From Peristeroidobacter soli (lineage in GTDB: Bacteria > Pseudomonadota > Gammaproteobacteria > Steroidobacterales > Steroidobacteraceae), in NCBI RefSeq assembly GCF_004138485.1, contig NZ_RYEV01000004.1:163718-195717 (forward strand): DNA of 32,000 nt, in the 5' to 3' direction. The notes beneath the pieces were generated by a model. That model worked only from the letters and a program-made list of their open reading frames with translations, had not been told where the DNA came from and did not search any database. The translations under genes were made by a program, and so were the position numbers. Each line of letters starts with the position of its first letter. Position 1 is the stretch's first letter. Positions 13,888 to 28,300 of this stretch are shown here, piece by piece.

Positions 13888-14415
13888 TTAGGACTTGACG
13901 GGTTCGAGAATGGCGTCGAGGTTCAGCTGATCGCACAAATCCATGAATTCCTCGCGCAACGCCGCGATATGAATCTTGGCTGGAATGTGGACGACCATCT
14001 GTACGGAAAACATTGGCGCGCCGGTATGCGCGGCGGCGTAGCTGCGCGTGTTCAGCTCGGCGATATCGATGCCGCGCGCGCTGAAAAAACCGGCCAGGTT
14101 GTGCACGATGCCCGGCTGATCCAGGCACACCACGTCGACCGAATACGTGACCACGTCCTTGCGCGGCGGCCGCTGGTCGGTGCGCCGGAGACTGATGGTG
14201 ATCCCGGAGGAATCGCTGAGCTTTTTCAGCTCGGTCTCCAGCTTGGCGAGCGTGTGCCAGTTACCGGACACCAGCAACAGCATGGCGAACTCGCTGCCGA
14301 ACGAGCTCATGCGGCTGTCGACGATGTTACCGGAGCAGTCGAGCACCACGCGGGTCAGATCGTAGACCAGACCGGTGCGATCGCTGCCAAGAGCGGAAAT
14401 GACGATGAACTGCAT
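13888..14415 (-). CDS. gcvR: Glycine cleavage system transcriptional repressor GcvR-like (tandem ACT domains)
   Basis: VISALGSDRTGLVYDLTRVVLDCSGNIVDSRMSSFGSEFAMLLLVSGNW parallels the E. coli GcvR N-terminus. The gcvR-bcp/dapA synteny is as in E. coli. Confidence 0.8.
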   Translation of the reverse strand: MQFIVISALGSDRTGLVYDLTRVVLDCSGNIVDSRMSSFGSEFAMLLLVSGNWHTLAKLETELKKLSDSSGITISLRRTDQRPPRKDVVTYSVDVVCLDQPGIVHNLAGFFSARGIDIAELNTRSYAAAHTGAPMFSVQMVVHIPAKIHIAALREEFMDLCDQLNLDAILEPVKS

Positions 14416-14527
14416 CGAGTGCCTGAGCGGGATTTACGGGTCGCCAGTTTACACGCACCGCGCGCTTGGCGTGCCTAACTGCCGTCAACTTTGGTAGGAT
14501 CGCGCCCCTTCCCCTTCGAGGATGACC

Positions 14528-15406
<879 letters not shown>

Positions 15407-15434
15407 ACGAGGCGCTGGCAACCTTTGCTCCATG

Positions 15435-15466
15435 AAAAAGCCCCTTCGCAGGGGCTTTCTTGTTTG
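15435..15466. terminator. Bidirectional rho-independent terminator between dapA and the convergent receptor gene
   Basis: Perfect 9-bp stem AAAGCCCCT-tcgc-AGGGGCTTT (15437-15458), flanked by an A-run on the left and a T-rich tract on the right. Confidence 0.7.
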
Positions 15467-15476
15467 ATGCCGGCGC

Positions 15477-18068
15477 TCAGAATGAACCTTTGATGGCCAG
15501 CTCGAAGCTTCGGGGCGTGCCATAGCGGTTGTTGCCCACCGTCGTGCCGACGGTCTGATAGTAACGCCGGTCCGCCACGTTCTCGATGTTCAGCGCCACC
15601 AGCCACCGGTCCGTGAGGTGATATCTGGCGGCGGAGGAGACGATGGCACGAGCCGGCTCCGTGAACGAGTAATCCACCGAGGTCCCGGGCACGCACGCCT
15701 GGCGCCCGGTCACCGGATTCGGTACGTCAGGGGTACACGTCGTACCCGCCACATAGGTCGCGGTCTGCGCGTTGATGCCGAGGCTCAGCTCCAAACGACG
15801 CCACGCCCCCGACGGTCGCAACGTCGACCAGACCTTCAGCAGATGCTTGGGAGTCTGAGATTGGAACGACGTGCCCTCAATCTCACCGAACGACGAGCCT
15901 TCCTGGGAATTCTGGTTGAAGGTGTAGCTCGCCTGCAGCTCCAACATCGGCAGCACCTGCCCTGCCACCTCCAGGTCCACGCCCTGGCTCAGCATGGAGC
16001 GGTTGGGATCGGCGATGTAGCAACAGGTGCGGCCATTGCCGTAGTTCACACGCGGGACGCTCAGATCCGAGATCCCGAAATTCTTCTGCTCCAGGCGATA
16101 GAAATCGAACGTTGCGGTGAGTCTGCCATCGGCCGATTGCGCCTTCAGGCCCAGCTCCAGGTTGTCTCCGGTCACCGGCGCCAGCGGCTCGCCACTGGCC
16201 GTGAGCTGGTCTGCCTGTCCCCTGTTGATCGAGGCGTAGGAACCGTAGACCGACAGACTCGAAGTGATGTCGTAGATCACCGCGAACTGCGAGGGTTCGA
16301 ATTCATTCCGCCGCCACAGATACACCGTCGGTGCGCGCGGGACGCCACTGCTCGAATAGCTCTGCTGCACCTGTTCGTACTCATACCCGCTCCAGCGCAC
16401 ACCCAACGGAAAATGCCAGCGATCCCACAGCGTCAGGTTGAGCCTCGCGTAGGCGCCCCATTGCTTCTGCCCCATGGCTGGATAGAGCGAGCGCCGGTAG
16501 TCACTCAACGGCTCAGGGAAATCGGTCGGCTCGAAGCTGAAAATATCGGGAATGGAAATGCCCGACTCTCCCGTGAACACATAGAGCTCGTATTCGCCGG
16601 CATCCACGTCCTGGTAGTTCGCCCCGACCGTCAGGCGCTGGCGCTCGCCGAACAGCTCGAACTCGCCGTTCAACGTGGCGTCCGCGACGAATTGTTTGCT
16701 GGAGTAGAACTCCCGCTGCGCCGACAGACTGGTACCGCCGCCTGTCTGCGTGCCGATGGCACCGTACAGCGCCGCGTATTTCAGCTTGGTCTGCTGATCG
16801 GTCCACGTGCTCTTGAGATCCAGGCTCCACCGCTCGCCCAGCCGCTGCTCGGCGCGCAGGAACACCTCGGACGACTCGGTGTCGAAGTAACCCCAGTCGA
16901 CACAGGCACACAGATCCCTGGGCAGGTGCAGATCGGTGCCATCGAGATAGCGCGGCCAGCCTGTCATGAGGGGAATGGAATCGCGCTTCATGGCGCTGCC
17001 GCCGATGCTCAGCAGCGTACCGGGCGACAGGTCGGCCTCGAAAGTGAGCGACTGCGTCTCGAGCGTCGATTCGGCAACGTCGAAGAAATAATCCTGGTCC
17101 TGATAGGTGGCGATGAAGCGCGCGCGCAATCTGCCATCGAACGCGATCGGCCCGGTGGCATCGCCCACCAGTCGATACTTGTTCCAGGAGCCGGCCGACG
17201 CTTCGGTGCTCAGCTGCACATGCGACAGCGGCCGTTTGCGAACCAGGTTGATGGTCGCGCCAGGGTCGCCATAGCCGCTGAACAGGCCATCCGCGCCGCG
17301 CAGCACTTCGACATGGTCGTACTGCGCCATCTCGAACAGATTCTGATAGGAGTAAGTGGCGCCCATCGAGACCGGGGCACTGCCATCGACTTGCACACGC
17401 GTCACCTCAAAAGCACGCGAGTACGGCGTGAGTGGATTGGTACCGCCGCCCAGCATCGTGATGCCAGCCGCTTGATTCAAGACATCGCTCAGCGAGGTGA
17501 GATTCTGATCGTCCATCCGCTGACGCGTGATGACACTCACGGTCTGCGGCGTATCTTTGATGCTCTCGGGAGATTTGGTTCCGATGCTGATCGCACTCGT
17601 CGTGTAGCTGCGCGTGCCTTCGGTCGCGGTGGTATCGGTGCTGCCGTTGATGCCGGCATTCGCGTTGGCGCCCTGCACCCCTTCCACTCGAACCGGGCCA
17701 AGCGTGCGCGAAGCTTCGCGCGACACGCGGATCAGTGTCGCCGTCATGGCGCCGGTGAAGCGGGCTTCGAGGCCGGTGCCCGCGAGCAGCGCGCCGAGCG
17801 CTTCGGTCACCGTGTAGTCACCGGAGATGCCTGCCGTCTTCATGCCGCTCGCAAGATTGCTCGGATACACGAGCTGCATGCGACTGACCTCCGAGAACGA
17901 GCTGAGCGCCTTGCTCAACTCACCCGCGGCGATATCGAAGCGCAGTCGCTGCTGACTCGCGGACTCTTTCTTATCCGATTGCGCGTGTGCCGTTTGTATC
18001 GAACAGATGAGCGCCGCGCCGAGCAATCCGCCTGCAATCACGCCCGCGCCCGCATTGTGTCTGATCAT
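15477..18068 (-). CDS. TonB-dependent siderophore-type receptor with an N-terminal STN signalling domain (FecA-like transducer)
   Basis: After the signal peptide comes an STN-like segment (FDIAAGELSKALSSFSEVSRMQLVYPSNL...TVTEALGALLAGTGLEA), then plug and barrel ending ...AIKGSF. The start is uncertain (18095, 18080 or 18068). Confidence 0.9.
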   Translation of the reverse strand: MIRHNAGAGVIAGGLLGAALICSIQTAHAQSDKKESASQQRLRFDIAAGELSKALSSFSEVSRMQLVYPSNLASGMKTAGISGDYTVTEALGALLAGTGLEARFTGAMTATLIRVSREASRTLGPVRVEGVQGANANAGINGSTDTTATEGTRSYTTSAISIGTKSPESIKDTPQTVSVITRQRMDDQNLTSLSDVLNQAAGITMLGGGTNPLTPYSRAFEVTRVQVDGSAPVSMGATYSYQNLFEMAQYDHVEVLRGADGLFSGYGDPGATINLVRKRPLSHVQLSTEASAGSWNKYRLVGDATGPIAFDGRLRARFIATYQDQDYFFDVAESTLETQSLTFEADLSPGTLLSIGGSAMKRDSIPLMTGWPRYLDGTDLHLPRDLCACVDWGYFDTESSEVFLRAEQRLGERWSLDLKSTWTDQQTKLKYAALYGAIGTQTGGGTSLSAQREFYSSKQFVADATLNGEFELFGERQRLTVGANYQDVDAGEYELYVFTGESGISIPDIFSFEPTDFPEPLSDYRRSLYPAMGQKQWGAYARLNLTLWDRWHFPLGVRWSGYEYEQVQQSYSSSGVPRAPTVYLWRRNEFEPSQFAVIYDITSSLSVYGSYASINRGQADQLTASGEPLAPVTGDNLELGLKAQSADGRLTATFDFYRLEQKNFGISDLSVPRVNYGNGRTCCYIADPNRSMLSQGVDLEVAGQVLPMLELQASYTFNQNSQEGSSFGEIEGTSFQSQTPKHLLKVWSTLRPSGAWRRLELSLGINAQTATYVAGTTCTPDVPNPVTGRQACVPGTSVDYSFTEPARAIVSSAARYHLTDRWLVALNIENVADRRYYQTVGTTVGNNRYGTPRSFELAIKGSF

Positions 18069-18133
18069 TCCCGTCCCCATTTCTTTCGCGACCATCTACG
18101 CCGCAAAAGAGAGACCAGCCAATGAAAATTTCC

Positions 18134-19057
18134 CTAACCGCGCGGCGTGACGATCAACAGGAATGGCAGGCGTCGCAGCTGCAATCCTGAACCGGCGGCG
18201 AGCGCATCCAGACCGCCGTTGAGATCCTGCACCGACAGCGAGCCGCTCATCGGCATCGCCCCGATGTCGTCATCGAGAAGAATGACAAACCCACGACGAT
18301 AGCGCTCGACGATGCGCAGCGTGTCCTCGAGGCTGGTGTGATCGAGCACGATCCGGCCGGCGCGCCACGCACCTTCGGCATGTGAATCGAAGCCGTGCAC
18401 GCTCGCCGTTGTGCCGGCAACGAACTGCGCCGACTCTCCACTCGCAAGCGGCGTGACGGTGTCGTTGAAATCGACCTCGACGCGACCGTCGCTCACGCTC
18501 ACTTGCAGTCGCGCATCGTGTGTATCGACGGTGAACGCGGTGCCGATGTCGCGAATCACGGCATTCATGGCGCGCACCTGGAACGGGCGACCCGCGTCAT
18601 TGGCGATCGCCACGTGCACTCGCCCGGCACTCACTTCGAGCACTCGCGCTCGAGCATCGTTACGAAAATCTACCGCCGCGCCGCTGTCGAGCCACAGCGT
18701 GCTGCCATCGGGCAATCGCGCCTGACGCACCTCTCCGACCGGTGCGCTGAAGTCGTGCTGAAACAGCCACGGCATCACCGCGAGCAGCATACAAGCGGCG
18801 GCCGCGAGCAGCGCCGGGACGATGAATCTAGAGCGTCGCGGTGGCGCGCGGACTGCGGGCTCAACGGCAGCGAGCCCCGCATACATTCGTCGCGCGCGGT
18901 CGAACGCCCGCCGATGCGATGGATCGCGGTTCAACCACTCCTTCAGTTCCGCCACGTCCTGTTGGGAGACGGCGTCGAGCGACAGACGCGCGACCCAGCG
19001 CACCGCTACATCGGTCACGGTCCGCGGATCGTCTACGGCAGCCACGATTGCATCCAT
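18134..19057 (-). CDS. FecR-family anti-sigma factor / transmembrane sensor
   Basis: VAVRWVARLSLDAVSQQDVAELKEWLNRDPSHRRAFDRA is the typical FecR N-terminus, followed by a single TM (FIVPALLAAAACMLLAV) and a periplasmic domain. The start is taken at MDAIVAAV; the track ORF extends to 19150, overlapping the sigma gene. Confidence 0.85.
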   Translation of the reverse strand: MDAIVAAVDDPRTVTDVAVRWVARLSLDAVSQQDVAELKEWLNRDPSHRRAFDRARRMYAGLAAVEPAVRAPPRRSRFIVPALLAAAACMLLAVMPWLFQHDFSAPVGEVRQARLPDGSTLWLDSGAAVDFRNDARARVLEVSAGRVHVAIANDAGRPFQVRAMNAVIRDIGTAFTVDTHDARLQVSVSDGRVEVDFNDTVTPLASGESAQFVAGTTASVHGFDSHAEGAWRAGRIVLDHTSLEDTLRIVERYRRGFVILLDDDIGAMPMSGSLSVQDLNGGLDALAAGSGLQLRRLPFLLIVTPRG

Positions 19058-19103
19058 GGAGAAAGAGAGACCAGTGAGAATGCAAAACCCCAACCTGCCG
19101 GCG

Positions 19104-19691
19104 TCATCGCTCGTCGTCCTGGGTCGCTTCCAACAGCAGCGACAAGGCATTGCGCAGGTGTTTCTCCACCGCTGTGGTGGAGATCCCGAGCCGCTGCGCG
19201 ATCTCCACTTGCTTCATGCCCTCGAACCGATTCATCGCGAGAATCTGCCGGGTACGCTCCGGCAACCGGCTCAACGTGCCGGTCACCCGGGTGAGCTGCT
19301 CGGTCGCGAGGAAATTGCGCTCCGGCGTGGCTTCATCGATGCCGGACCAGAGCAGATCCTTCACCTCTTCAGTCAGCTCGCTGCGCCGGCGAGCCACGGC
19401 TCGATGATTGGTGGCCAGATTGACGGCGATCCGAAACAGGAACGCGCGTGGGTCGTGCACCGGCTCGGCCGGTGGCGAATGAATGCGAAGGAAGACTTCC
19501 TGGACGATGTCCTGCGCGGTCGCACGACAGCCGATGCGGGCAGCGATGAATCGCAGCAACGCAGGCTCGTGCTCGCGGAACGAAGTGAGCAGGTCGACCG
19601 CAGCGGCCGATCCGCCGGCATCGATGTCGCCGAAGTCTGTCACTCCGCACGCTCCGCGAGCGCTGCGGCTCCCGGTGCGGTCATGGATCAA
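19104..19691 (-). CDS. ECF sigma-70 family factor (FecI-like)
   Basis: Region 2 (AQDIVQEVFLRIH...FLFRIAVNLATNH) and region 4 HTH (QILAMNRFEGMKQVEIAQRLGISTTAVEKHL). Confidence 0.9.
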   Translation of the reverse strand: MIHDRTGSRSARGACGVTDFGDIDAGGSAAAVDLLTSFREHEPALLRFIAARIGCRATAQDIVQEVFLRIHSPPAEPVHDPRAFLFRIAVNLATNHRAVARRRSELTEEVKDLLWSGIDEATPERNFLATEQLTRVTGTLSRLPERTRQILAMNRFEGMKQVEIAQRLGISTTAVEKHLRNALSLLLEATQDDER

Positions 19692-19847
19692 TCCAGGGTC
19701 GAGGGGCGCCTACGGCAAAGAACGTCCGGGCCTCGGCGGGACCGCAATTCGCACCCGCCACTCGCCACTCGCCCGCCGACGGCGTCGCACCGGTCAGCGC
19801 AAGTCCCCGTTCCCGGTCGGCAATCCGGTCCCCGGCCCCTGACAAAT

Positions 19848-19873
19848 TTCAGCAGTTTTCAGCGGACTTCAGC
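19848..19873. repeat. Three TTCAGC hexamers at exact 10-bp spacing (function unknown)
   Basis: TTCAGC occurs at 19848, 19858 and 19868, in the intergenic region between the ECF sigma gene and tRNA-Ser. Confidence 0.5.
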
Positions 19874-19902
19874 CCCTGGCACGGCCGGTCAGAGACCGGG
19901 GT

Positions 19903-19931
19903 TTGCCGACCCGCGCCGCGCCGTGTACCCT
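19903..19931 (+). promoter_or_regulatory. Candidate tRNA-Ser promoter (TTGCCG-17 nt-TACCCT, GC-rich discriminator)
   Basis: The spacing fits a sigma-70 promoter, and the -10 ends 13 nt before the mature tRNA 5' end. The match to consensus is weak. Confidence 0.3.
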
Positions 19932-19944
19932 TCGCGCCCTGACC

Positions 19945-20036
19945 GGAGAGATGGCCGAGTGGTCGAAGGCGCTGGACTGGAATTCCAGTAACATCCTCAC
20001 AGGTGTTCCAGGGTTCGAATCCCTGTCTCTCCGCCA
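19945..20036 (+). tRNA. tRNA-Ser (anticodon GGA), long variable arm, encoded CCA
   Basis: Acceptor GGAGAGA/TCTCTCC. Anticodon stem CTGGA/TCCAG with loop CTGGAAT. T-arm GTTCGAATCC. 3' end ...G-CCA at 20034-20036. Confidence 0.95.
19975..20036 (+). repeat. Left copy of the 62-bp direct repeat (attL-like; equals the 3' part of tRNA-Ser)
   Basis: Identical base for base to 25305-25366 (GACTGGAATTCCAGTAACATCCTCACAGGTGTTCCAGGGTTCGAATCCCTGTCTCTCCGCCA). Confidence 0.9.
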
Positions 20037-20156
20037 CCTATCCAAGAAAAATAAGAATTTACGAACGACTTCCCCGTTTGTACCCCAAACCAACCCTCAA
20101 AAAGTTACCGGTTGGAGGGGCTTTAATAGTTCGTTGGTGCCTATGCCCTGCTAGCT

Positions 20157-20654
20157 TTAGATTTCTCCTGGCATGAGCATCCCGCAAAACAGTAGCAACT
20201 TGCCAAGATCAATCTCGGCGCGAGTCCAGTTCTGCGGCATACCTCCTTCTTTGGAGTCGCACACGAACTGTGGGGCTGCATCTGCGGAGAACTGCCATCG
20301 GTAGCCCGTGCCGTGAATGACCTTATTCGCAATATCCCGGAGCGTCAGCGCGCGCGTTTGACCGCTGGCAACGATCAAGGTCCCGAACTCAACGTCAGTA
20401 TGCTCCTTCATATGCTTTCCAACGTTCTCTTCGTCATCTAGTGCGCGCAGGTACACGGCTAGTTCTAAGAAAGCTTGTATTGCTCGATGCTCCGCCATTT
20501 CGAATACAACGACGCCCAAGTTCGCGAACTCCCCTCTGAAATTCTTCTGGCAGTAAATCTCAAGCGGCGTCCGGCTAAACGCAAATTGGAACACCACACA
20601 CATGTTGCGTTCCATTAGCTGCTTCATTGGGAGCGGAATCTTTAGCGTACTCAT
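20157..20654 (-). CDS. Hypothetical protein, 165 aa, no family recognised; degenerate HEPN-like box LRDIANKVIHG
   Basis: Uninterrupted ORF in ~50% GC DNA. No obvious Shine-Dalgarno and no TM segments. Confidence 0.55.
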   Translation of the reverse strand: MSTLKIPLPMKQLMERNMCVVFQFAFSRTPLEIYCQKNFRGEFANLGVVVFEMAEHRAIQAFLELAVYLRALDDEENVGKHMKEHTDVEFGTLIVASGQTRALTLRDIANKVIHGTGYRWQFSADAAPQFVCDSKEGGMPQNWTRAEIDLGKLLLFCGMLMPGEI

Positions 20655-20698
20655 AATTCAACGATGCACTTCAGTCATAGAGACCGTCAAGTTGGGTA

Positions 20699-20733
20699 TA
20701 GAAAAGACCGGGCAGAAAGGACGCACTACCCGG
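20699..20733 (-). terminator. Candidate terminator after the 119-aa gene
   Basis: On the minus strand, CCGGGTAG-tgcgtccttt-CTGCCCGG (one G-U pair) is followed by TCTTTTCT. Confidence 0.4.
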
Positions 20734-20769
20734 CAACCGCAATCGCAACGCCGGCACTGAACTCTGCGA

Positions 20770-21129
20770 TTAGTCGAAGCCGCCAACGCGGGAATTCATC
20801 TTGCTGGCTTGCAACTTATCGGCGAAGTACATGCACACTTTCGCCGCCGTCGCCTTGAACTTGACCGGTACATCCTGAAGCGCGTCGCTGCGCTCCATCT
20901 TTTCCCATACCTTGGGCCCATGGGTCTTGATGGCATCAAAGCGCATGCTGCTGTGAGCCTTCTCGTTCAATCCGAGTAGGAACGACTCGGAATTGAAAAG
21001 CACAATGACAATGTTCTTGTTCGTTCGAACAAGGTCATACAGCTTCGTAACACCGTCTTCCCTCGCAGCTTGTTCGCGAATGAATGTCATGATGGCCGCG
21101 TCGCATGCCAACTGATCAGTCGCTTGCAA
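20770..21129 (-). CDS. Hypothetical small protein (119 aa from TTG at 21129, or 106 aa from ATG at 21090)
   Basis: ORF only; soluble, no recognised motifs; start uncertain. Confidence 0.45.
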   Translation of the reverse strand: MQATDQLACDAAIMTFIREQAAREDGVTKLYDLVRTNKNIVIVLFNSESFLLGLNEKAHSSMRFDAIKTHGPKVWEKMERSDALQDVPVKFKATAAKVCMYFADKLQASKMNSRVGGFD

Positions 21130-21242
21130 GTAGCACAGGTCAACGCGAAATTTGTCTGCGGACGAGATTCAGTGTGTGCGAGCTGATGACAAGCAATGGA
21201 TGCGCTCAGGACCTCCGCAGTTCCCATAGAACCGCACCACTT

Positions 21243-22232
21243 CTAACGCATCCACTGGAATTGCGCAGGGTTGAACGGAGCACTTCCCACCGCGCCCACG
21301 ATCAGCGCGAACCCGATGACTCCGATGAGCCTTCTATTCTGTAATACACGATGGCGAGCGACGGCATAGATGGTGCGATCGATCAATGGCCAAACGAACT
21401 TGTGGAGCAGAACGACACCGAAGACGATGGTGAACACAGACGCGGTTACCACCAGAAAGGCTCGACTTGCCATGAGGAGCACCAGAAATGACCCCAGCCA
21501 TGGATTCCGGTGCATAACGCCAGCAATCATTCCGGATTGCCCGACAGTAAGCAGAATACCTGGCGCGGCGAGATAGATAAGAAGTGATATGAGCGTTGGC
21601 AACAGCTTCTGCGATGCACTCACCTTGCGCGAGACCCACCGGACAAGTAATGACCACAGGAAATCGATTGGGACCGACAAGGCCAATGAGCCGACAAAAA
21701 TGTAGTTGATGAGCAAGAATTCCGGGCCATATGGATCGGGGCGACGGACATACTCTGATGCAATCGTCCAAGTAAACATGATCAGGAATATTGCAAAAGA
21801 GAGTGGCAGCAGGAATATCAAGCGTTCGATCCTTCTGCCGCCCATGAGCGCCGGCAAACTGCCGAGCGCAACAAAAATGACTGGCATGGCCCATACTGCT
21901 GGAATATTCGGTCGGCCCGTGGCAGCAATCAAGTACACGGACATCGAAGCGAGCGCGTAGCTAAAGGACACCCCAACTGCTCGAACCGAAAACAGGGTGG
22001 GACCGAAGATCGCGTCAAATGCTCGCGAGCTTAACTTGGCAGTTTCGGTAACTAGGCGCCGTATGAATGTGCTTGCATTATCGGACCGATCGTTGACGCG
22101 AATCCATAAGTTCTCGAGAGCGTTATGCAGCCGGCTCTCTTCATCCTCATAGAGAAAGAACGCGATGTACAGACAAAGGCTGCCGACTGCGATTGCAAGG
22201 ATTTGGATGGCCATTGTTGATGCTTCTGTCAT
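21243..22232 (-). CDS. Hypothetical polytopic membrane protein, 329 aa
   Basis: N-terminal TM (AIQILAIAVGSLCLYIAFFLY), a ~50-aa polar helical segment, then about seven further hydrophobic helices. No family recognised. Confidence 0.65.
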   Translation of the reverse strand: MTEASTMAIQILAIAVGSLCLYIAFFLYEDEESRLHNALENLWIRVNDRSDNASTFIRRLVTETAKLSSRAFDAIFGPTLFSVRAVGVSFSYALASMSVYLIAATGRPNIPAVWAMPVIFVALGSLPALMGGRRIERLIFLLPLSFAIFLIMFTWTIASEYVRRPDPYGPEFLLINYIFVGSLALSVPIDFLWSLLVRWVSRKVSASQKLLPTLISLLIYLAAPGILLTVGQSGMIAGVMHRNPWLGSFLVLLMASRAFLVVTASVFTIVFGVVLLHKFVWPLIDRTIYAVARHRVLQNRRLIGVIGFALIVGAVGSAPFNPAQFQWMR

Positions 22233-22379
22233 GATCGATTTCGGACGACCTCCTCACACCGTAGTCATAGTCGGCGAATGTCAACTTCTCAGCGGGCCTG
22301 GTCCTGCGACACTGCGCCCAACGTTCCATAGACCCTGCCACACGGGAACGAGCCGGCAATGTCGCATTATATGCGAGAA

Positions 22380-23035
22380 GACGTGAGCAAGGGTCGGTCC
22401 GCACGACAGGAAATATTTGATCGAGTTCACGACCTTTTATTGGAAACAGCGGGTCAAGCCGATGGTACTGCTCAAACCGACAAAGGCGAACCGGCAGAGA
22501 TCGACCAAGCCATCGACCGTCGATGGGGCTACGCGCGTTTCTTGAGGTGACCTAGACTGAGTTGCTTGATATTGCGACTAGCCAGGACTGGAAAACGAAG
22601 AAAGCCTATAACAACGGACTCACACCGCTGCGCCGTGCTTTCGCGTTCGAAAATCATCTGGACGGGAAGAACCCGGCGGAGAATCTGGAGAACTTTCGGG
22701 TCACGATAAAGATCGCCGACCGTCGAGGAGCCCTCACCGCGCAAGAGACCGCACTCATCATCGCGTCCATTCATGGCAAACGGGGGGCGAGCTCATCGGC
22801 AACTATGATGAGTTCCAGTTTTTCACCGGCCTGCGGTAGTCGGAGCAGATTACGCTATGTGCGCACAATGCAGCCGGTTGGACCGAAGAAGATATCGTGC
22901 GAACAAACAAGCAATGGCGGCGAGGTAACCGGCGGGCGCATCAGGGCGCCCTCGCATGCCCGCAGGCTCCCCAGCAAACGCAACTTGAAGCCATCCGCTC
23001 CGGTTGGGAACCAAGTAAGTCACTGACTTTAATGG
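22380..23035 (+). pseudogene. Tyrosine recombinase (phage-type integrase) remnant, frameshifted, with a premature stop and 3'-truncated
   Basis: One frame gives the core-binding-like LDIATSQDWKTKKAYNNGLTPLRRAFAFENHLDGKNPAENL...LTAQETALIIASIH. A shifted frame continues GELIGNYDEFQFFTGLR*SEQI, with TAG at 22837-22839 where TGLRPSE normally has Pro. The HxxR and catalytic Tyr regions are absent. Confidence 0.7.
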
Positions 23036-23154
23036 CGACTTGAGCCCAAGGCCACCTGAAGTCCCCGCTCCTACCACCATAGCTGCCACCAATTGCGCGT
23101 CGAGGGCGCCCTCCAGCTGACTCTCTCCGAGCGTTATTTTTGAAAAAAATATTT

Positions 23155-23175
23155 AATCGTAGCCCTACTACGATT
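23155..23175. promoter_or_regulatory. Inverted repeat 1 upstream of abiEi (AATCGTAG-N5-CTACGATT)
   Basis: Perfect 8-bp arms inside an AT-rich promoter-like tract containing two TTGAAA hexamers. Confidence 0.5.
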
Positions 23176-23212
23176 ATCTTGAAAAATTTAAACTTTGGAG
23201 GAATACTTGTAT

Positions 23213-23229
23213 TCGTAGCATGACTACGA
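23213..23229. promoter_or_regulatory. Inverted repeat 2 spanning the abiEi start codon (TCGTAG-cATGa-CTACGA)
   Basis: Same core arms as repeat 1, 58 bp downstream. The ATG at 23220 sits in the spacer. Confidence 0.5.
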
Positions 23230-23963
23230 CACGACACACTATCCTAAAGACCGTCCTGGCGCGTTTGCCCGCCGGTGCTCCCGTGACCTCGGCCGACCTG
23301 ACCGGGTACGGAGTTTCGCCGGACCTCGCCGTTCACTATGTTCGAGCCGGGTGGCTCAACCGGCTCGAGCGCGGTGTGTTTCTACGCCCTGGCGATACGT
23401 TATCGCTCGCTCCCTCTCTGCTGTTGCTAGAACGCAAGCTGACCGGATTGCATGTCGGTGGGAAATCGGCGTTGGAGTGGCACGGCATACGCCACTACGT
23501 CTCGCAGCAGACGACGCTGCATCTTTACGGCTGGGTGGCGGGTCGCCTTCCCGCGTGGTTCACAGACCAATTCCCCTCGGACTACCACCGCAAACGCCTT
23601 TTTAAAGAAAAGCCAGAGACCCCGCTGCATGTGGCTCGCTTCGAAGGGCTGCAAGCGGGCGGCAACCCACTGGTGTCGTCGCCTGAGCGCGCCCTACTCG
23701 AACTGCTTAGCGAGGTCGGCGTCCGCCAGCCACTGTCGGAAGCTCGTGAGCTCACCGAAGGCACTCACACACTGCGTGCTAGCGCCTTATCGAATCTGCT
23801 CAAACACTGCACGAGCGTTAAAACGGTCCGCCTCTGCCTCACGCTTGGACGGGAACTCTCCTCACCCTGGGTTAGCAAACTCGATCCCAAGCAACTTCCC
23901 ACGGGCAGTGACAAACCGTGGGTGTCGCGATCCTCCGAAGGCACACTGGTATTGAAGCCGTGA
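23220..23963 (+). CDS. abiEi: Type IV toxin-antitoxin system AbiEi-family antitoxin / transcriptional regulator
   Basis: N-terminal winged-helix-like region (VTSADLTGYGVSPDLAVHYVRAGWLNRLERGVF) and the SSPERALLELL motif typical of AbiEi. It is paired with an AbiEii gene. Confidence 0.88.
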   Translation: MTTTRHTILKTVLARLPAGAPVTSADLTGYGVSPDLAVHYVRAGWLNRLERGVFLRPGDTLSLAPSLLLLERKLTGLHVGGKSALEWHGIRHYVSQQTTLHLYGWVAGRLPAWFTDQFPSDYHRKRLFKEKPETPLHVARFEGLQAGGNPLVSSPERALLELLSEVGVRQPLSEARELTEGTHTLRASALSNLLKHCTSVKTVRLCLTLGRELSSPWVSKLDPKQLPTGSDKPWVSRSSEGTLVLKP

Positions 23964-24877
23964 ATCAGGTGTATCTCGACACCGCTCGCTTGCTCACGCA
24001 AGTCGCACCTCTCGTGCTGAACACAGATGACTTTGCCCTCAAAGGCGGCACTGCAATCAACTTGTTCCTCCGAGACATGCCACGGCTGTCGGTCGACCTC
24101 GATCTCGCATTCATCGATCACACCCTCTCGCGCGAGGACGCACTCAAGCGCATCAGCGATACACTCCATGGAAGCCGAAAACAGCTGCAGCGATTGGGCT
24201 TCAACGTCAGAACCGTTGCGGTTGCAAGCGCTCCGGACACCAAAATGTTCGTCCGTCGACAGAACATCGAGATCAAAGTTGAAGTCAATTTCGTCACTCG
24301 CGGCCTGGTCGGCCGCGTGGTCTCACGATCACTCACGCAGCGAGCACAGGACGCTCTCCAGGCGGAAACCGAAGTCCCCATCGCCTCGAGCGAGGACGTC
24401 TATGCGGGCAAGCTGGTCGCAGCGCTCGACCGACAGCATCCACGCGACCTGTTTGATGTAATGCAGCTATTTGAGCACGAAGGCATTACACCAGCGATCC
24501 GCCGTGCGTTCGTCCTCTATCTCGCCAGCCACGATCGCCCGCTTCACGAAGTGCTCGCCCCAAAGCGTCGAGACCTCACGCTGGACTATGAAGGCGCCTT
24601 TAAGGGCATGACGGCTGACGTCGTTCCCCTGGATCAACTCGAGGGGGCACGCGAACGTCTCGTCGCTGATCTCCAACGGGACCTCGATGCGACCGAGCGC
24701 CAGTTCCTCCTATCGTTTGTGAACCTGACACCTGAATGGGCGCTGCTGAATATTCCGCACGCTGCAACCCTGCCCGCGCTTCGCTGGAAGATCTCGAACT
24801 TGGAACGCCTGCGGGAGAAGAATCCAGCAAAGTTCGCCCAGCAGGCGGATTCATTGGCCGCAGTCCTCAATATGTAG
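23960..24877 (+). CDS. abiEii: Nucleotidyltransferase AbiEii/AbiGii-family toxin
   Basis: FALKGGTAINLFLRDMPRLSVDLDLAF is the AbiEii nucleotidyltransferase motif. The GTG at 23960 overlaps the abiEi TGA (GTGA), suggesting translational coupling. The track's ATG at 23918 would overlap abiEi by 46 nt. Confidence 0.88.
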   Translation: MNQVYLDTARLLTQVAPLVLNTDDFALKGGTAINLFLRDMPRLSVDLDLAFIDHTLSREDALKRISDTLHGSRKQLQRLGFNVRTVAVASAPDTKMFVRRQNIEIKVEVNFVTRGLVGRVVSRSLTQRAQDALQAETEVPIASSEDVYAGKLVAALDRQHPRDLFDVMQLFEHEGITPAIRRAFVLYLASHDRPLHEVLAPKRRDLTLDYEGAFKGMTADVVPLDQLEGARERLVADLQRDLDATERQFLLSFVNLTPEWALLNIPHAATLPALRWKISNLERLREKNPAKFAQQADSLAAVLNM

Positions 24878-25304
24878 CTCGCGAGTTTCTCTCATTTTCT
24901 CGTCAGGCCGACGGCGACGAGACCATCGTGGCGCAGAGACGCGCGTGTTCATGTGCGCTGTGGGTATGCTAAAAAGCAATGGCCAATTTTCTTCGGTCGC
25001 AATCGCTGCCTTTTTCCAGACGCCGTCCTCGCCGGCTGAAAATCCATAGGAGTTTCGCAGTGCGCTTACCCGGGCCTGAGCCAGCCCGCTCGTATACAAT
25101 CAAGCCGCTTAAGATGCTGGAACGGAGCGACGAGGCCTCGAACTTTCGGTACGCGCGCCGTCGAGCTTGGCGGTGAAGCCGGTACCCATTCTGTACCCAA
25201 CAGAGGAAAAGCGAGCGTGATCTGGGGTAACGAAGAGCCTTCGAGTTTGGCTGTAACACCTTACGCTGGCTCATGTTAGCTGTTAGTCGCTGCTGTGAAG
25301 ATGA

Positions 25305-25366
25305 GACTGGAATTCCAGTAACATCCTCACAGGTGTTCCAGGGTTCGAATCCCTGTCTCTCCGCCA
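25305..25366 (+). repeat. Right copy of the 62-bp direct repeat (attR-like partial tRNA-Ser)
   Basis: Exact copy of 19975-20036. It lacks the tRNA 5' half, so it is not a functional tRNA. Confidence 0.9.
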
Positions 25367-25395
25367 GATCCCCCCCTCGTGCCGGCGCACGCCTC

Positions 25396-28300
25396 TCAAT
25401 ACTCCTTTTTGAATTGAGGGTGCACCCAGCGAAACTCCTGCCGCTTCGAGAGCACCCGAACCAGGCCGCCGTAGTTCGCCGCCGGGTCCACTCGCCTCAG
25501 CAGGGCATGGAACTCTCTCAAGCCGGCGCCATCCGCCACGACGACGGCGCCGGGACCTTGCAACCAACGCTCGCTCTCGGCGGCCGTCTCATCTAGGAGC
25601 TCTCCGGCACCGAGCGTCGCGTCGATCACCTCCTTGGAGAAATCGAGCTGATGCTCGAGCTCCTTGTACCGCGCCTCCTCGATGAGCAGCGGCGCGCCGG
25701 AAACCGCCACGGGCAGAACAAGCCTCAGCGCGGTATTCATCACCTTCAAATAAGGCGCGACCGTTTTGAACCAGGCTCGGTCCAGCTCGATCTCATACAC
25801 CCCGACGCGCTCGTCGCCGCCCAGGAAATGGGTCGGCAGGCGCGAATGTTCGCACCATAGGGTGATTCTGAATTTCGCGGAGAGCCACTGCCGCGGATGA
25901 AACTTGCTTCGCTCGACGGGCGCCACGCTGATCAGACGCGGTCCGTTGACGGCCTCATCGGTCAAAGAGCGAACGATGGCGGCATAGCAACTGTCGGCGC
26001 GACTGAGCAGCTCGCGCTGCCCCGCCGTCAGCTCCGACACTCGAGCGATGAGCGCACCGTGATGCGCGGTGAGCAGTTGCCGGATGTCACGCAGCTCCTG
26101 AACGATGCGCGCGCCTTGTAAATCAGCCGGCACCGGCGCGGCCGGAAGCGCATTCCGAAGCAAATGGTCGATCTGCTGCCACATGCCGCACGTCGGACAG
26201 GGAAACTCGGAGCGCCCTCCGCGCTTGCTCGCCAGCAGTGGATCCACGCGAAACAGACCGGTGCCCGCCGCGCCCCGACCGCACGGATGAACGCATGGGA
26301 CCATGACTTCGCACTCCAGTCCGGTCCAGTAGCTCTCCACCAGATATTTCACCTCACTGGTGAGCATCGCAAGCAAGCGCTCGGGGTAAGCCGCGCGCAC
26401 CGTGATGCGAACGTTCGAATCGACGTACTCGAGCAACGCCCGGCCGTTGTAGCTGTCATCGACCACCAGTCCGCGCTGCCAGTGCACGCTGTGAGCGAAG
26501 TTCACACGCCCCAGCGAGTACTTATGCAGACGCACGATCAATTGATAAAACAGCCCCTCGGCCAGTGCCGGAGTCCCTTTGCCGTCGACGATTCTGCAGA
26601 TCTGCTGCTGCTGCTGATCCCCGCTCTGGAGCGAGGCGTCGGGCCAGACCTGCTGCAGATCGACCATCGGCCTGACATCGGGAACGAGCTGAGCGATGAG
26701 GCTCGTGTAAGCAAGCGGGCGCGCGTCGATGACCGCGTGCGACACGTGACTGGCCGCCTGCAATTTCACCTGCTGGCTGAAACTCAGACTATCGATCGGC
26801 TCACCCGCGAGCACGACCTTGTAAGAGATGTCGAATCGTTCCATGAGCCGCAGAAACAATGGATGCAGATCGGGCGCATATCGGACTGCCTCGGGCCGCC
26901 GCGGATCGTTCCAGAGTTGACTCAGGCGCGTGAAGCTCACCAGGCCCCGGCTGTCCCGCGTGACCTTGTCGTCGAGCACGAAACTGATCGCGGTGGCGAG
27001 CCAATCCGGCTTGAGAATGACGAGATCGCGCAGCGCCAGATCGTGTTCGTAGTGAATCAAGTGGCCGAGCCGATGTGAGATTGCGAGGAACAGCGCGATC
27101 TCCTCGTCGCTCATCGCGAAGCCACGACAAATCTTCCGGACTGTCTCGACACTCAGGTAAGGCGCGCCCCGATGCAACAGTCGCTGACGGGCTCCGCGCC
27201 ATTTGAGCGGTGCGACCCGTCGGACATCCGGTAACTCGAGCGCCGCACGGCCAATGGCCTCTCTGAGCTCCGGGACACCGCGACGATGCCGCTGGGAGTC
27301 GGGCTTGTTCTCGACATGAAAGAAATCGAGCACGGTGTCGCGCCCGAACAGATCCCACAACTCCTGTCGGTCGATATCGGGCTGCCGTTCATCCGGGCCA
27401 CCGTGCGTGCCCACCACGAAGATTTTCGCGGCGGGCGCACGATGCAAGATCAGGCGAATCCACTCCTTCACCAGATTCTGCTGTGCCCCCTCGCGCGGTT
27501 TCCAGACCACCAGGTAAATCGCAGGCGCGGAGAAGAACAATTGATGCGTGGGCCGATAGACGCGCTGCCCGCCGAAATCCCAGCAGTTCAGCGACAGCCC
27601 CGGCGCCCCCGGTGCGCTGATTTTCATCGGCTGAACCTGGATGCCGTGCGTCGAGGAGTGTTCCTTCCACGGCCGCTCGCACAGCGCATCCAGCAGACAC
27701 GTCTTGCCCACCTCGCCTTCGCCGACCAGGATGAGCTTCGCCTCGAACAGCGGCGCGTGTTCCAGCTTCTGCGCCTTCAGGTACGTCTTGAGCGACGGGA
27801 AACCCAGTTCGATCGCGGCTCGCAACTCGTAGGACAGCGGATTCTTCCCGCTCTCCAGATAGGAGAGATTGCACTCAGCCAACGACGGCGGCAGCGTGAC
27901 GAGGTGGTTGCGATCGACCCAGAGGCTCTGCAGGCCCGTATTGCCGATCGAGTCCGGCAGGTTCATCAGCTCGTTCTCGGAGAGTCGCAACTCCCGCAGG
28001 TTCCTGAGAGCGCCAATGGCATCGGGCAACGACCGCAGCTTGTTGCGATGAAGAATCAAGACTTCCAGAGCGCGACACCGTGTCAGCTCCGCCGGCAATT
28101 CCGTCAGCGCATTGTTGTGAGCAAATAGCTCCCGAAGCGAGCGCCACTCACTGCAGTAGCCCGGCAGACTCTGCAGACGATTGTTCGAGATCAACAGCGC
28201 TCTGAGCGACGCCATCCCGCGCAGAGCATCGCCCATGCGCTCGATCCCACAACTGGTCAGATTCAGATACTCCAACTGCGACAACAGCCGCAACGACTCC

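Follow-up and report, generated by a model that had tools for sequence, protein, structure and literature searches.

Gene A, ORF B and gene C as probable separate passengers in a decayed tRNA-Ser island of Peristeroidobacter soli

A 32,000-nucleotide (nt) stretch of the Peristeroidobacter soli genome (contig NZ_RYEV01000004.1 of assembly GCF_004138485.1, positions 163,718 to 195,717 of the forward strand; hereafter the window) carries a small island at a tRNA-Ser gene, in which three open reading frames (ORFs), here called gene A, ORF B and gene C, lie side by side on the minus strand. A first-pass annotation of the window regarded them as a possible new defense or exclusion module. They are probably three unrelated passengers of a decayed island, acquired and read separately, and not one system. 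C moves as a cassette of a single gene and its leader, and A likewise travels alone. On this reading there is no three-gene system of the kind proposed, and cloning aimed at the wrong unit is spared. What remains are two uncharacterized families (A and C), both lacking a Pfam model and a structurally solved relative, and the ORFan B. The novelty is modest, consisting of unassigned island cargo; its upside is that C may define a new membrane defense protein.

Distribution and arrangement of the three genes

The arrangement seen at first pass, three minus-strand ORFs between attL and an integrase remnant, is confirmed, with the lengths and the approximately nine transmembrane helices of C given in Table 1. 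To examine its interpretation as a module, the three proteins were searched with tblastn in 85 loci fetched from outside the window. Relatives of A are present in 19 of these loci and relatives of C in 41, duplicates included, and two members of the trio occur together in none. Since no locus holds two of them, a module is not supported; in these loci the genes do not recur together in order, as those of a multi-gene system would. The proposed layout of a membrane effector with small cytosolic partners is largely refuted by these 19 A and 41 C loci, and by a close copy of C that stands without A or B. The conserved block in other genomes that the first-pass annotation had suggested looking for was likewise absent from the loci compared.

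The spacing of the genes leads in the same direction. The gaps measure 115 nt between A and B and 113 nt between B and C, and a terminator-like hairpin is found between B and A, so that the earlier caveat of separate transcription units fits the data. Folding of the minus strand across the hairpin gives -17.7 kcal/mol with z = -1.7, which makes it only modestly better than shuffles, and a simple terminator scan made no call at this site. Taken with the cassette evidence for C described below, the predicted hairpin and its U-tract fit separate transcription units. Together with the gaps, they argue against a single C-B-A unit.

The three proteins were compared with Pfam, NCBIfam, PHROGs, PADLOC-DB v2.0.0 and the sequences of the PDB, A and C also with PDB folds, and A with BFVD. 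None had been placed in a described family from the letters alone, and this holds against Pfam, PADLOC, PHROGs, NCBIfam and the PDB; A and C have no match in any of these libraries, PDB folds included. In PADLOC-DB, nothing was found below E 0.018 for A, B or C, 16 members of the C family gave no match, and 40 members of the A family gave single hits at chance level only. None of the three matched PHROGs below E 0.1, and tblastn against 50,697 phage records and against plasmid collections returned nothing for any of them. Matches to phage structural or housekeeping families, which would have spoken against the first-pass annotation, were thus not found in PHROGs or in the phage records.

Gene C and its relatives

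The independence of C is seen in a metagenome contig (L001) which matches the window with 85% nucleotide identity over 21232-22316 only, a segment comprising C and about 85 nt upstream; the match stops about 10 nt past the C stop codon. The contig derives from a related organism: at its right end it matches a different contig of the Peristeroidobacter soli genome with 89% identity. Its copy of C has an extracytoplasmic function (ECF) sigma factor gene on one side and an alginate-export-type gene on the other, and neither A nor B is present. Because this contig shares only C and its leader with the window, C constitutes an independent cassette of about 1.1 kb, and the leader that travels with it probably carries the C promoter.

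Relatives of C are known from about 25 loci in soil and peat metagenomes, metagenome-assembled genomes (MAGs) of Acidobacteriota and one probable Bacteroidota contig. The closest are 83%, 58% and 39% identical to C, and the remoter ones come from Acidobacteriota MAGs and from soil or peat metagenomes. Comparison with the 83%-identical copy on L001 gives a ratio of nonsynonymous to synonymous substitution rates (dN/dS) of 0.26, a value that indicates purifying selection on C. The start at the ATG at 22232 is supported by the family alignment. Truncations or frameshifts affect about one third of the family copies from metagenomes and MAGs (L026, L034-L036, L042/L043, L044/L046, L047, L048 and L050), and this points to rapid turnover of the family through fast gain and loss.

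The family alignment comprises 16 sequences that are 18-83% identical to C of the window. With residues numbered from the second Met, 15 of its columns are invariant in all 16 sequences (Y16, A18, F19, F20, Y22, E23, E25, W37, G71, S76, R192, W275, R280, Y283 and R287), and D184, H271, P276 and N293 are nearly so. C is laid out as a first transmembrane helix (TM1) ending in Y[IV]AFF[LM]YEDEE, followed by a long amphipathic helix and eight further transmembrane helices. The N-terminal hallmark of the family reads TM1-Y[IV]AFF[LM]YEDEE-xxQNxLExxW, and the C-terminal one, HKxxWPLxxRxIYAxxR, forms a basic membrane-proximal segment ahead of the last helix. The count of about nine hydrophobic helices comes from Kyte-Doolittle hydropathy and from an AlphaFold2 (AF2) model, which is all-helical (predicted local distance difference test score, pLDDT, 78.7; predicted template-modeling score, pTM, 0.63).

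In fold searches of the C and A models against the PDB, and of the A model against BFVD, there was no match at E<=0.001, and template-modeling (TM) scores stayed at or below 0.4. For C, Foldseek found no counterpart among PDB folds (best E 0.33, TM scores <=0.22), and neither C nor its 15 aligned relatives match any model in Pfam, NCBIfam, PHROGs or PADLOC. A PDB search with the family profile returned only Ninjurin-2 (E 0.006, 19 bits over a hydrophobic stretch), which was judged compositional and set aside. The sole match to the C family in a viral collection lies at 4013-4135 of L051 (IMG/VR UViG_3300018016_000140), a 4.1-kb contig at whose cut end the N-terminal 41 residues are encoded.

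As far as the assembled contigs tell, the C family recurs alone inside defense islands and integrase-borne islands of other bacteria. For instance, in one locus (L003) C is flanked on one side by a 1,529-residue DUF4062-NACHT-NCAB2 protein of the bacterial NACHT (bNACHT) type and on the other by an AAA_21/RloB pair, which PADLOC matches to AbiLi at 1.6e-93. Another example is L054, where C has an OLD-family nuclease gene on one side and a CHAT protease gene on the other, with Mrr_cat-nSTAND3 and Hypoth_Ymh genes adjoining. Elsewhere C is cargo of tRNA-integrase-DUF3987 islands (L025 and L026), lies near an NYN nuclease gene (L057), or is found near RHS, RDD and SocA_Panacea genes (L052). In an Acidobacteriaceae contig (L024:9318-10613, minus strand), a C-like gene is convergent with a gene for a Tle1-like (DUF2235) phospholipase domain of the type VI secretion system, about 220 nt away.

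PADLOC applied to 92 ORFs neighboring C relatives returned Old (1.2e-65), PDC-S73 (3.8e-247), PD-Lambda-3_B (8.5e-83) and three AriA-like ATPases. The PDC-S73 match is not in four Acidobacteriota MAGs and is probably the 761-residue Mrr-nSTAND3 protein of L054. Including the window with its AbiE pair, defense-gene neighbors of C are thus found at three places, the others being L003 (bNACHT and AbiL-like) and L054 (OLD, Mrr-nSTAND3, CHAT and Ymh); this tally is qualitative and comes from few contigs without a background control. The guilt by association with defense that had been drawn for the whole trio applies, qualitatively, to C alone, through these neighbors and the integrase islands, and not to the trio.

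C is a reasonable candidate for a single-gene defense protein. It might be a phage-exclusion or abortive-infection protein that works by itself at the inner membrane, a suggestion kept tentative because its defense neighbors lack a background control and two contexts (L001 and L023) are not defense-like. Its functional site would then be made up of a conserved acidic collar, the YEDEE that follows TM1, and a basic face, WPLxxRxIYAxxR. It is quite unlikely that the C family constitutes a new, partner-free, one-gene anti-phage system at the membrane, with a fold without a solved counterpart, in the form of a cassette of about 1.1 kb spreading between defense islands of Acidobacteriota, Gammaproteobacteria and probably Bacteroidota. 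C is cheap to test as one gene for a new membrane-acting role in defense or exclusion, its family being small, constrained, mobile singly and repeatedly found among NACHT, OLD, AbiL, STAND and CHAT genes.

Gene A and ORF B

Gene A belongs to a far-reaching family of mostly stand-alone proteins. A search of 1.84 billion representatives with hmmsearch recovered 269 cluster representatives at E<=1e-3 and 172 at E<=1e-10, from Gammaproteobacteria, Gemmatimonadales, Acidobacteriota, Verrucomicrobiota, Competibacter and Burkholderiales. Members are mostly 150-165 residues long and almost all stand alone; a few have N-terminal extensions. Two such fusions (P0007 and P0093) have in common an extension of about 220-240 residues (with FEEFLKEAGKDHYRLLK) that has no Pfam match and is a possible partner domain. 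For A, the family alignment favors a start at the ATG at 20654. Across 40 aligned sequences R70, G91, R106, K111, H114, W143 and A146 are invariant, and S27, G41, D73, N110, W120 and P128 nearly so. The polar residues among them (R70, R106, K111 and H114, plus the nearly invariant D73 and N110) form a constellation indicative of an enzyme or of a binder of nucleotides or nucleic acid, and this conserved cluster suggests catalysis or ligand binding.

The AF2 model of A, a confident one (pLDDT 85.9, pTM 0.81), consists of a two-helix hairpin packed on a small alpha/beta unit, with a 5-strand element. Foldseek found nothing for it in the PDB at E<=0.001 (best E 0.11, TMq 0.21), and BFVD gave no match. 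A Pfam hit to DUF3037 (E 0.032) was absent from the 39 other family members and was taken as chance. With a shape that matches neither the PDB nor BFVD and an invariant R/R/K/H site, the family offers a broad target for structural and biochemical annotation.

A is a cytosolic, solitary accessory gene, often found at the edges of islands. Its relatives occur directly after an integrase at tRNA-Ser (L061), directly after tRNA-Leu (L063), next to a split GmrSD restriction gene (L064) and near a Schlafen/AlbA_2 gene (L060). All-against-all BLAST of ten A-family loci disclosed no conserved partner among the neighbors, only the A-like proteins themselves being in common. In a further contig (L065:889-4433), an A-like gene is part of a same-strand run of eight ORFs encoding about 100-180 residues, among them a SUKH/SMI1_KNR4 protein; the run resembles a polyimmunity locus.

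A and C are considered real genes because each has homologs. The earlier warning that ORFs without homologs might be spurious applies to B, not to A or C. No homolog of B was found in a search of 5.8 billion proteins, in 400 genomes of the family and 380 of the class, in IMG/VR, in plasmids, in phages or in the PDB. Its open frame of 132 codons is not beyond chance, as the longest frame averages about 131 codons in shuffles of the 2.4-kb stretch. The GC values (fractions of guanine plus cytosine) at its first, second and third codon positions are 0.53, 0.36 and 0.69, a pattern that looks coding. B, an ORFan, could be a recently arisen gene or might not be a gene.

The island, alternative readings and comparison with known systems

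The island is a 5.3-kb insert enclosed by two identical 62-bp direct repeats, the first of which lies within the tRNA-Ser gene (Table 1). Since the repeats are still identical, the insertion is recent. The insert has the direct repeats of a tRNA 3' end, the integrase (as a broken remnant only) and the deviant GC of a tRNA-integrated genomic island. GC is 0.52-0.54 over 20001-22500 and 0.55-0.60 over 22501-25500, and 0.62-0.68 in the flanks. The tRNA island, the GC drop and the AbiE neighbor noted at first pass are thus borne out, the island by the 62-bp repeat and AbiE by matches in Pfam and PADLOC. The integrase remnant is split over two frames by a frameshift and has an in-frame TAG within FFTGLR*SE (the TGLR-x-SE box); its longest piece has no Pfam match. 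AbiEi and AbiEii form a type IV toxin-antitoxin, or abortive-infection, pair that is neighboring cargo outside the trio. As called from the longest ORFs, their genes overlap by 46 nt (23918-23963), and the real abiEii start may be further downstream.

Table 1. Features of the tRNA-Ser island and of the genes within it (window coordinates)
Feature	Position	Strand	Remarks
Gene A	20157..20654	-	165 residues, soluble
ORF B	20770..21129	-	119 residues from TTG start; 106 residues from ATG at 21090 (start in public gene call)
Gene C	21243..22232	-	329 residues, all-helical membrane protein, about nine transmembrane helices
C upstream leader	22233..22316	-	travels with C; probably carries C promoter
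Terminator-like hairpin between B and A	20699..20733	-	9-bp GC-rich stem, then CUUUUCU
tRNA-Ser(GGA)	19945..20036	+	integration target; ARAGORN
attL	19975..20036	+	direct repeat; final 62 nt of tRNA-Ser(GGA)
Tyrosine-integrase remnant	22380..23035	+	three-frame translation; C-terminal catalytic half missing
abiEi	23220..23963	+	Pfam AbiEi_3 E 2.9e-36; PADLOC AbiEi E 1.3e-66
abiEii	23918..24877	+	Pfam AbiEii E 4.4e-37; PADLOC AbiEii E 4.1e-109
attR	25305..25366	+	exact 62-bp copy of tRNA-Ser 3' end

A mosaic origin of the island is likely, because the integrase sits in its middle and the two segments also differ in composition (GC 0.52-0.53 in the A-B-C segment against 0.55-0.60 in that of the integrase remnant and AbiE). 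Tandem accretion has no surviving internal att remnant as proof. A third att copy within three mismatches was sought, including between C and the integrase remnant, and none was found. The idea of a tandem island that lost a middle att site between these two genes was rejected, as the best local alignment was no better than shuffles.

The tRNA-Ser gene is a hotspot. One congener (G402:C1:118689-183687) has a second, 66-nt copy of the tRNA 3' end, 99% identical, about 65 kb downstream, which implies that a far larger island occupies this att site in a related species. No clean empty site could be demonstrated, since nine same-genus genomes have the tRNA and the upstream gene, each with different DNA downstream. 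In these nine genomes a homolog of window 13950-15410 abuts tRNA-Ser directly; the block of TonB-dependent receptor, FecR and ECF sigma factor genes at 15411-19918 is missing from them and is thus itself variable. Lying upstream of the tRNA, this block is a second variable segment at tRNA-Ser.

Several observations weigh against three separate passengers with C as the defense candidate. A, B and C share strand, similar GC and regular spacing, and co-transcription of C and B is possible. Some contexts of C are not defense-like (a sigma factor and a porin in L001, transporters in L023), and those that are make up a handful of informative contigs, a qualitative sample without a background control. 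The contexts of A are mixed, with one relative in a general accessory region (L086) and another between housekeeping genes (L089). The mode of action proposed for C is purely conjectural, as C resembles no known membrane protein of the exclusion or Abi type. The common strand, the similar GC (0.52-0.53), the 113-115-nt spacing and the place beside AbiE in a tRNA island would also suit a three-gene defense or exclusion module, in which a membrane effector is joined by two cytosolic sensor or regulator partners. Such a module is scarcely credible, however: none of about 60 related loci contains more than one of the trio, a close copy of C lacks A and B, B has no homolog, a terminator-like hairpin stands between B and A, and PADLOC gives no match.

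It is also somewhat unlikely that A and C have nothing to do with phage defense and are accessory genes serving as orphan immunity genes against polymorphic toxins or in membrane or stress functions, so that their defense neighbors would reflect co-residence in hotspots. Several contexts that are not defense-like fit this explanation, as do the A-like gene in a small same-strand ORF array with a SUKH/SMI1_KNR4 immunity-type protein and the C-like genes near an RHS toxin gene and near a Tle1-like phospholipase gene. However, at least two independent loci have recognized defense genes on both sides of a C relative, neither family has a conserved toxin partner beside it, and the invariant R/K/H site of A, with its near-invariant D/N, looks catalytic or ligand-like rather than like a typical immunity-protein surface. 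Decay of the whole region, with B as a chance ORF and A and C as inactive remnants in a dead island, is very unlikely. The broken integrase, the chance-level length of B and its lack of homologs, and the damage in about one third of the C-family copies elsewhere would agree with it, but the family alignments show A and C to be of full length, with every invariant residue retained, C has a dN/dS of 0.26, and the identical 62-bp repeats mark a recent insertion. Three separate passengers remain the probable explanation.

AbiE is one of the known systems with which the trio can be compared. This type IV toxin-antitoxin shares the island with the trio and gives it its defense neighborhood. It differs in lying on the opposite strand, in its higher GC (0.55-0.60), in being separated from the trio by the broken integrase, and in being a complete two-gene system that does not need A, B or C. 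HEPN RNases of abortive-infection systems were considered as a model for A and rejected. Like them, A has a conserved R-x3-N-K-x2-H helix (R106, K111 and H114 invariant, N110 nearly) and occurs in mobile or defense-type contexts. This motif is a hallmark of the family, not an accidental resemblance. As R106-x7-H114 (R-[DE]-x-x-N-K-[IV]-[IV]-H), it nonetheless falls outside the Rx4-6H definition with its spacing of 7 residues instead of 4-6, the predicted fold is alpha/beta and not a four-helix bundle, Foldseek finds no HEPN structure, and Pfam HEPN models match none of 40 A-family members.

SieA of P22, RexB of lambda and Imm of T4 exemplify the membrane proteins that act singly in phage exclusion or abortive infection. 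C is larger than this class (329 residues, about nine transmembrane helices), was not found in the sequenced phages searched, and showed no sequence or fold similarity to it in the library and PDB searches. Compared by general knowledge and not by sequence, C resembles these proteins in being a single membrane protein without an enzymatic domain, carried on a mobile element among defense genes. Another comparison is with the candidate families put forward through guilt by association, such as the PDC models of PADLOC (PDC-*). Unlike them, C is absent from PADLOC-DB v2.0.0 and its family is small, at about 25 loci; like them, C is uncharacterized and, by an informal criterion applied to a handful of contigs, recurs beside known defense genes in unrelated genomes.

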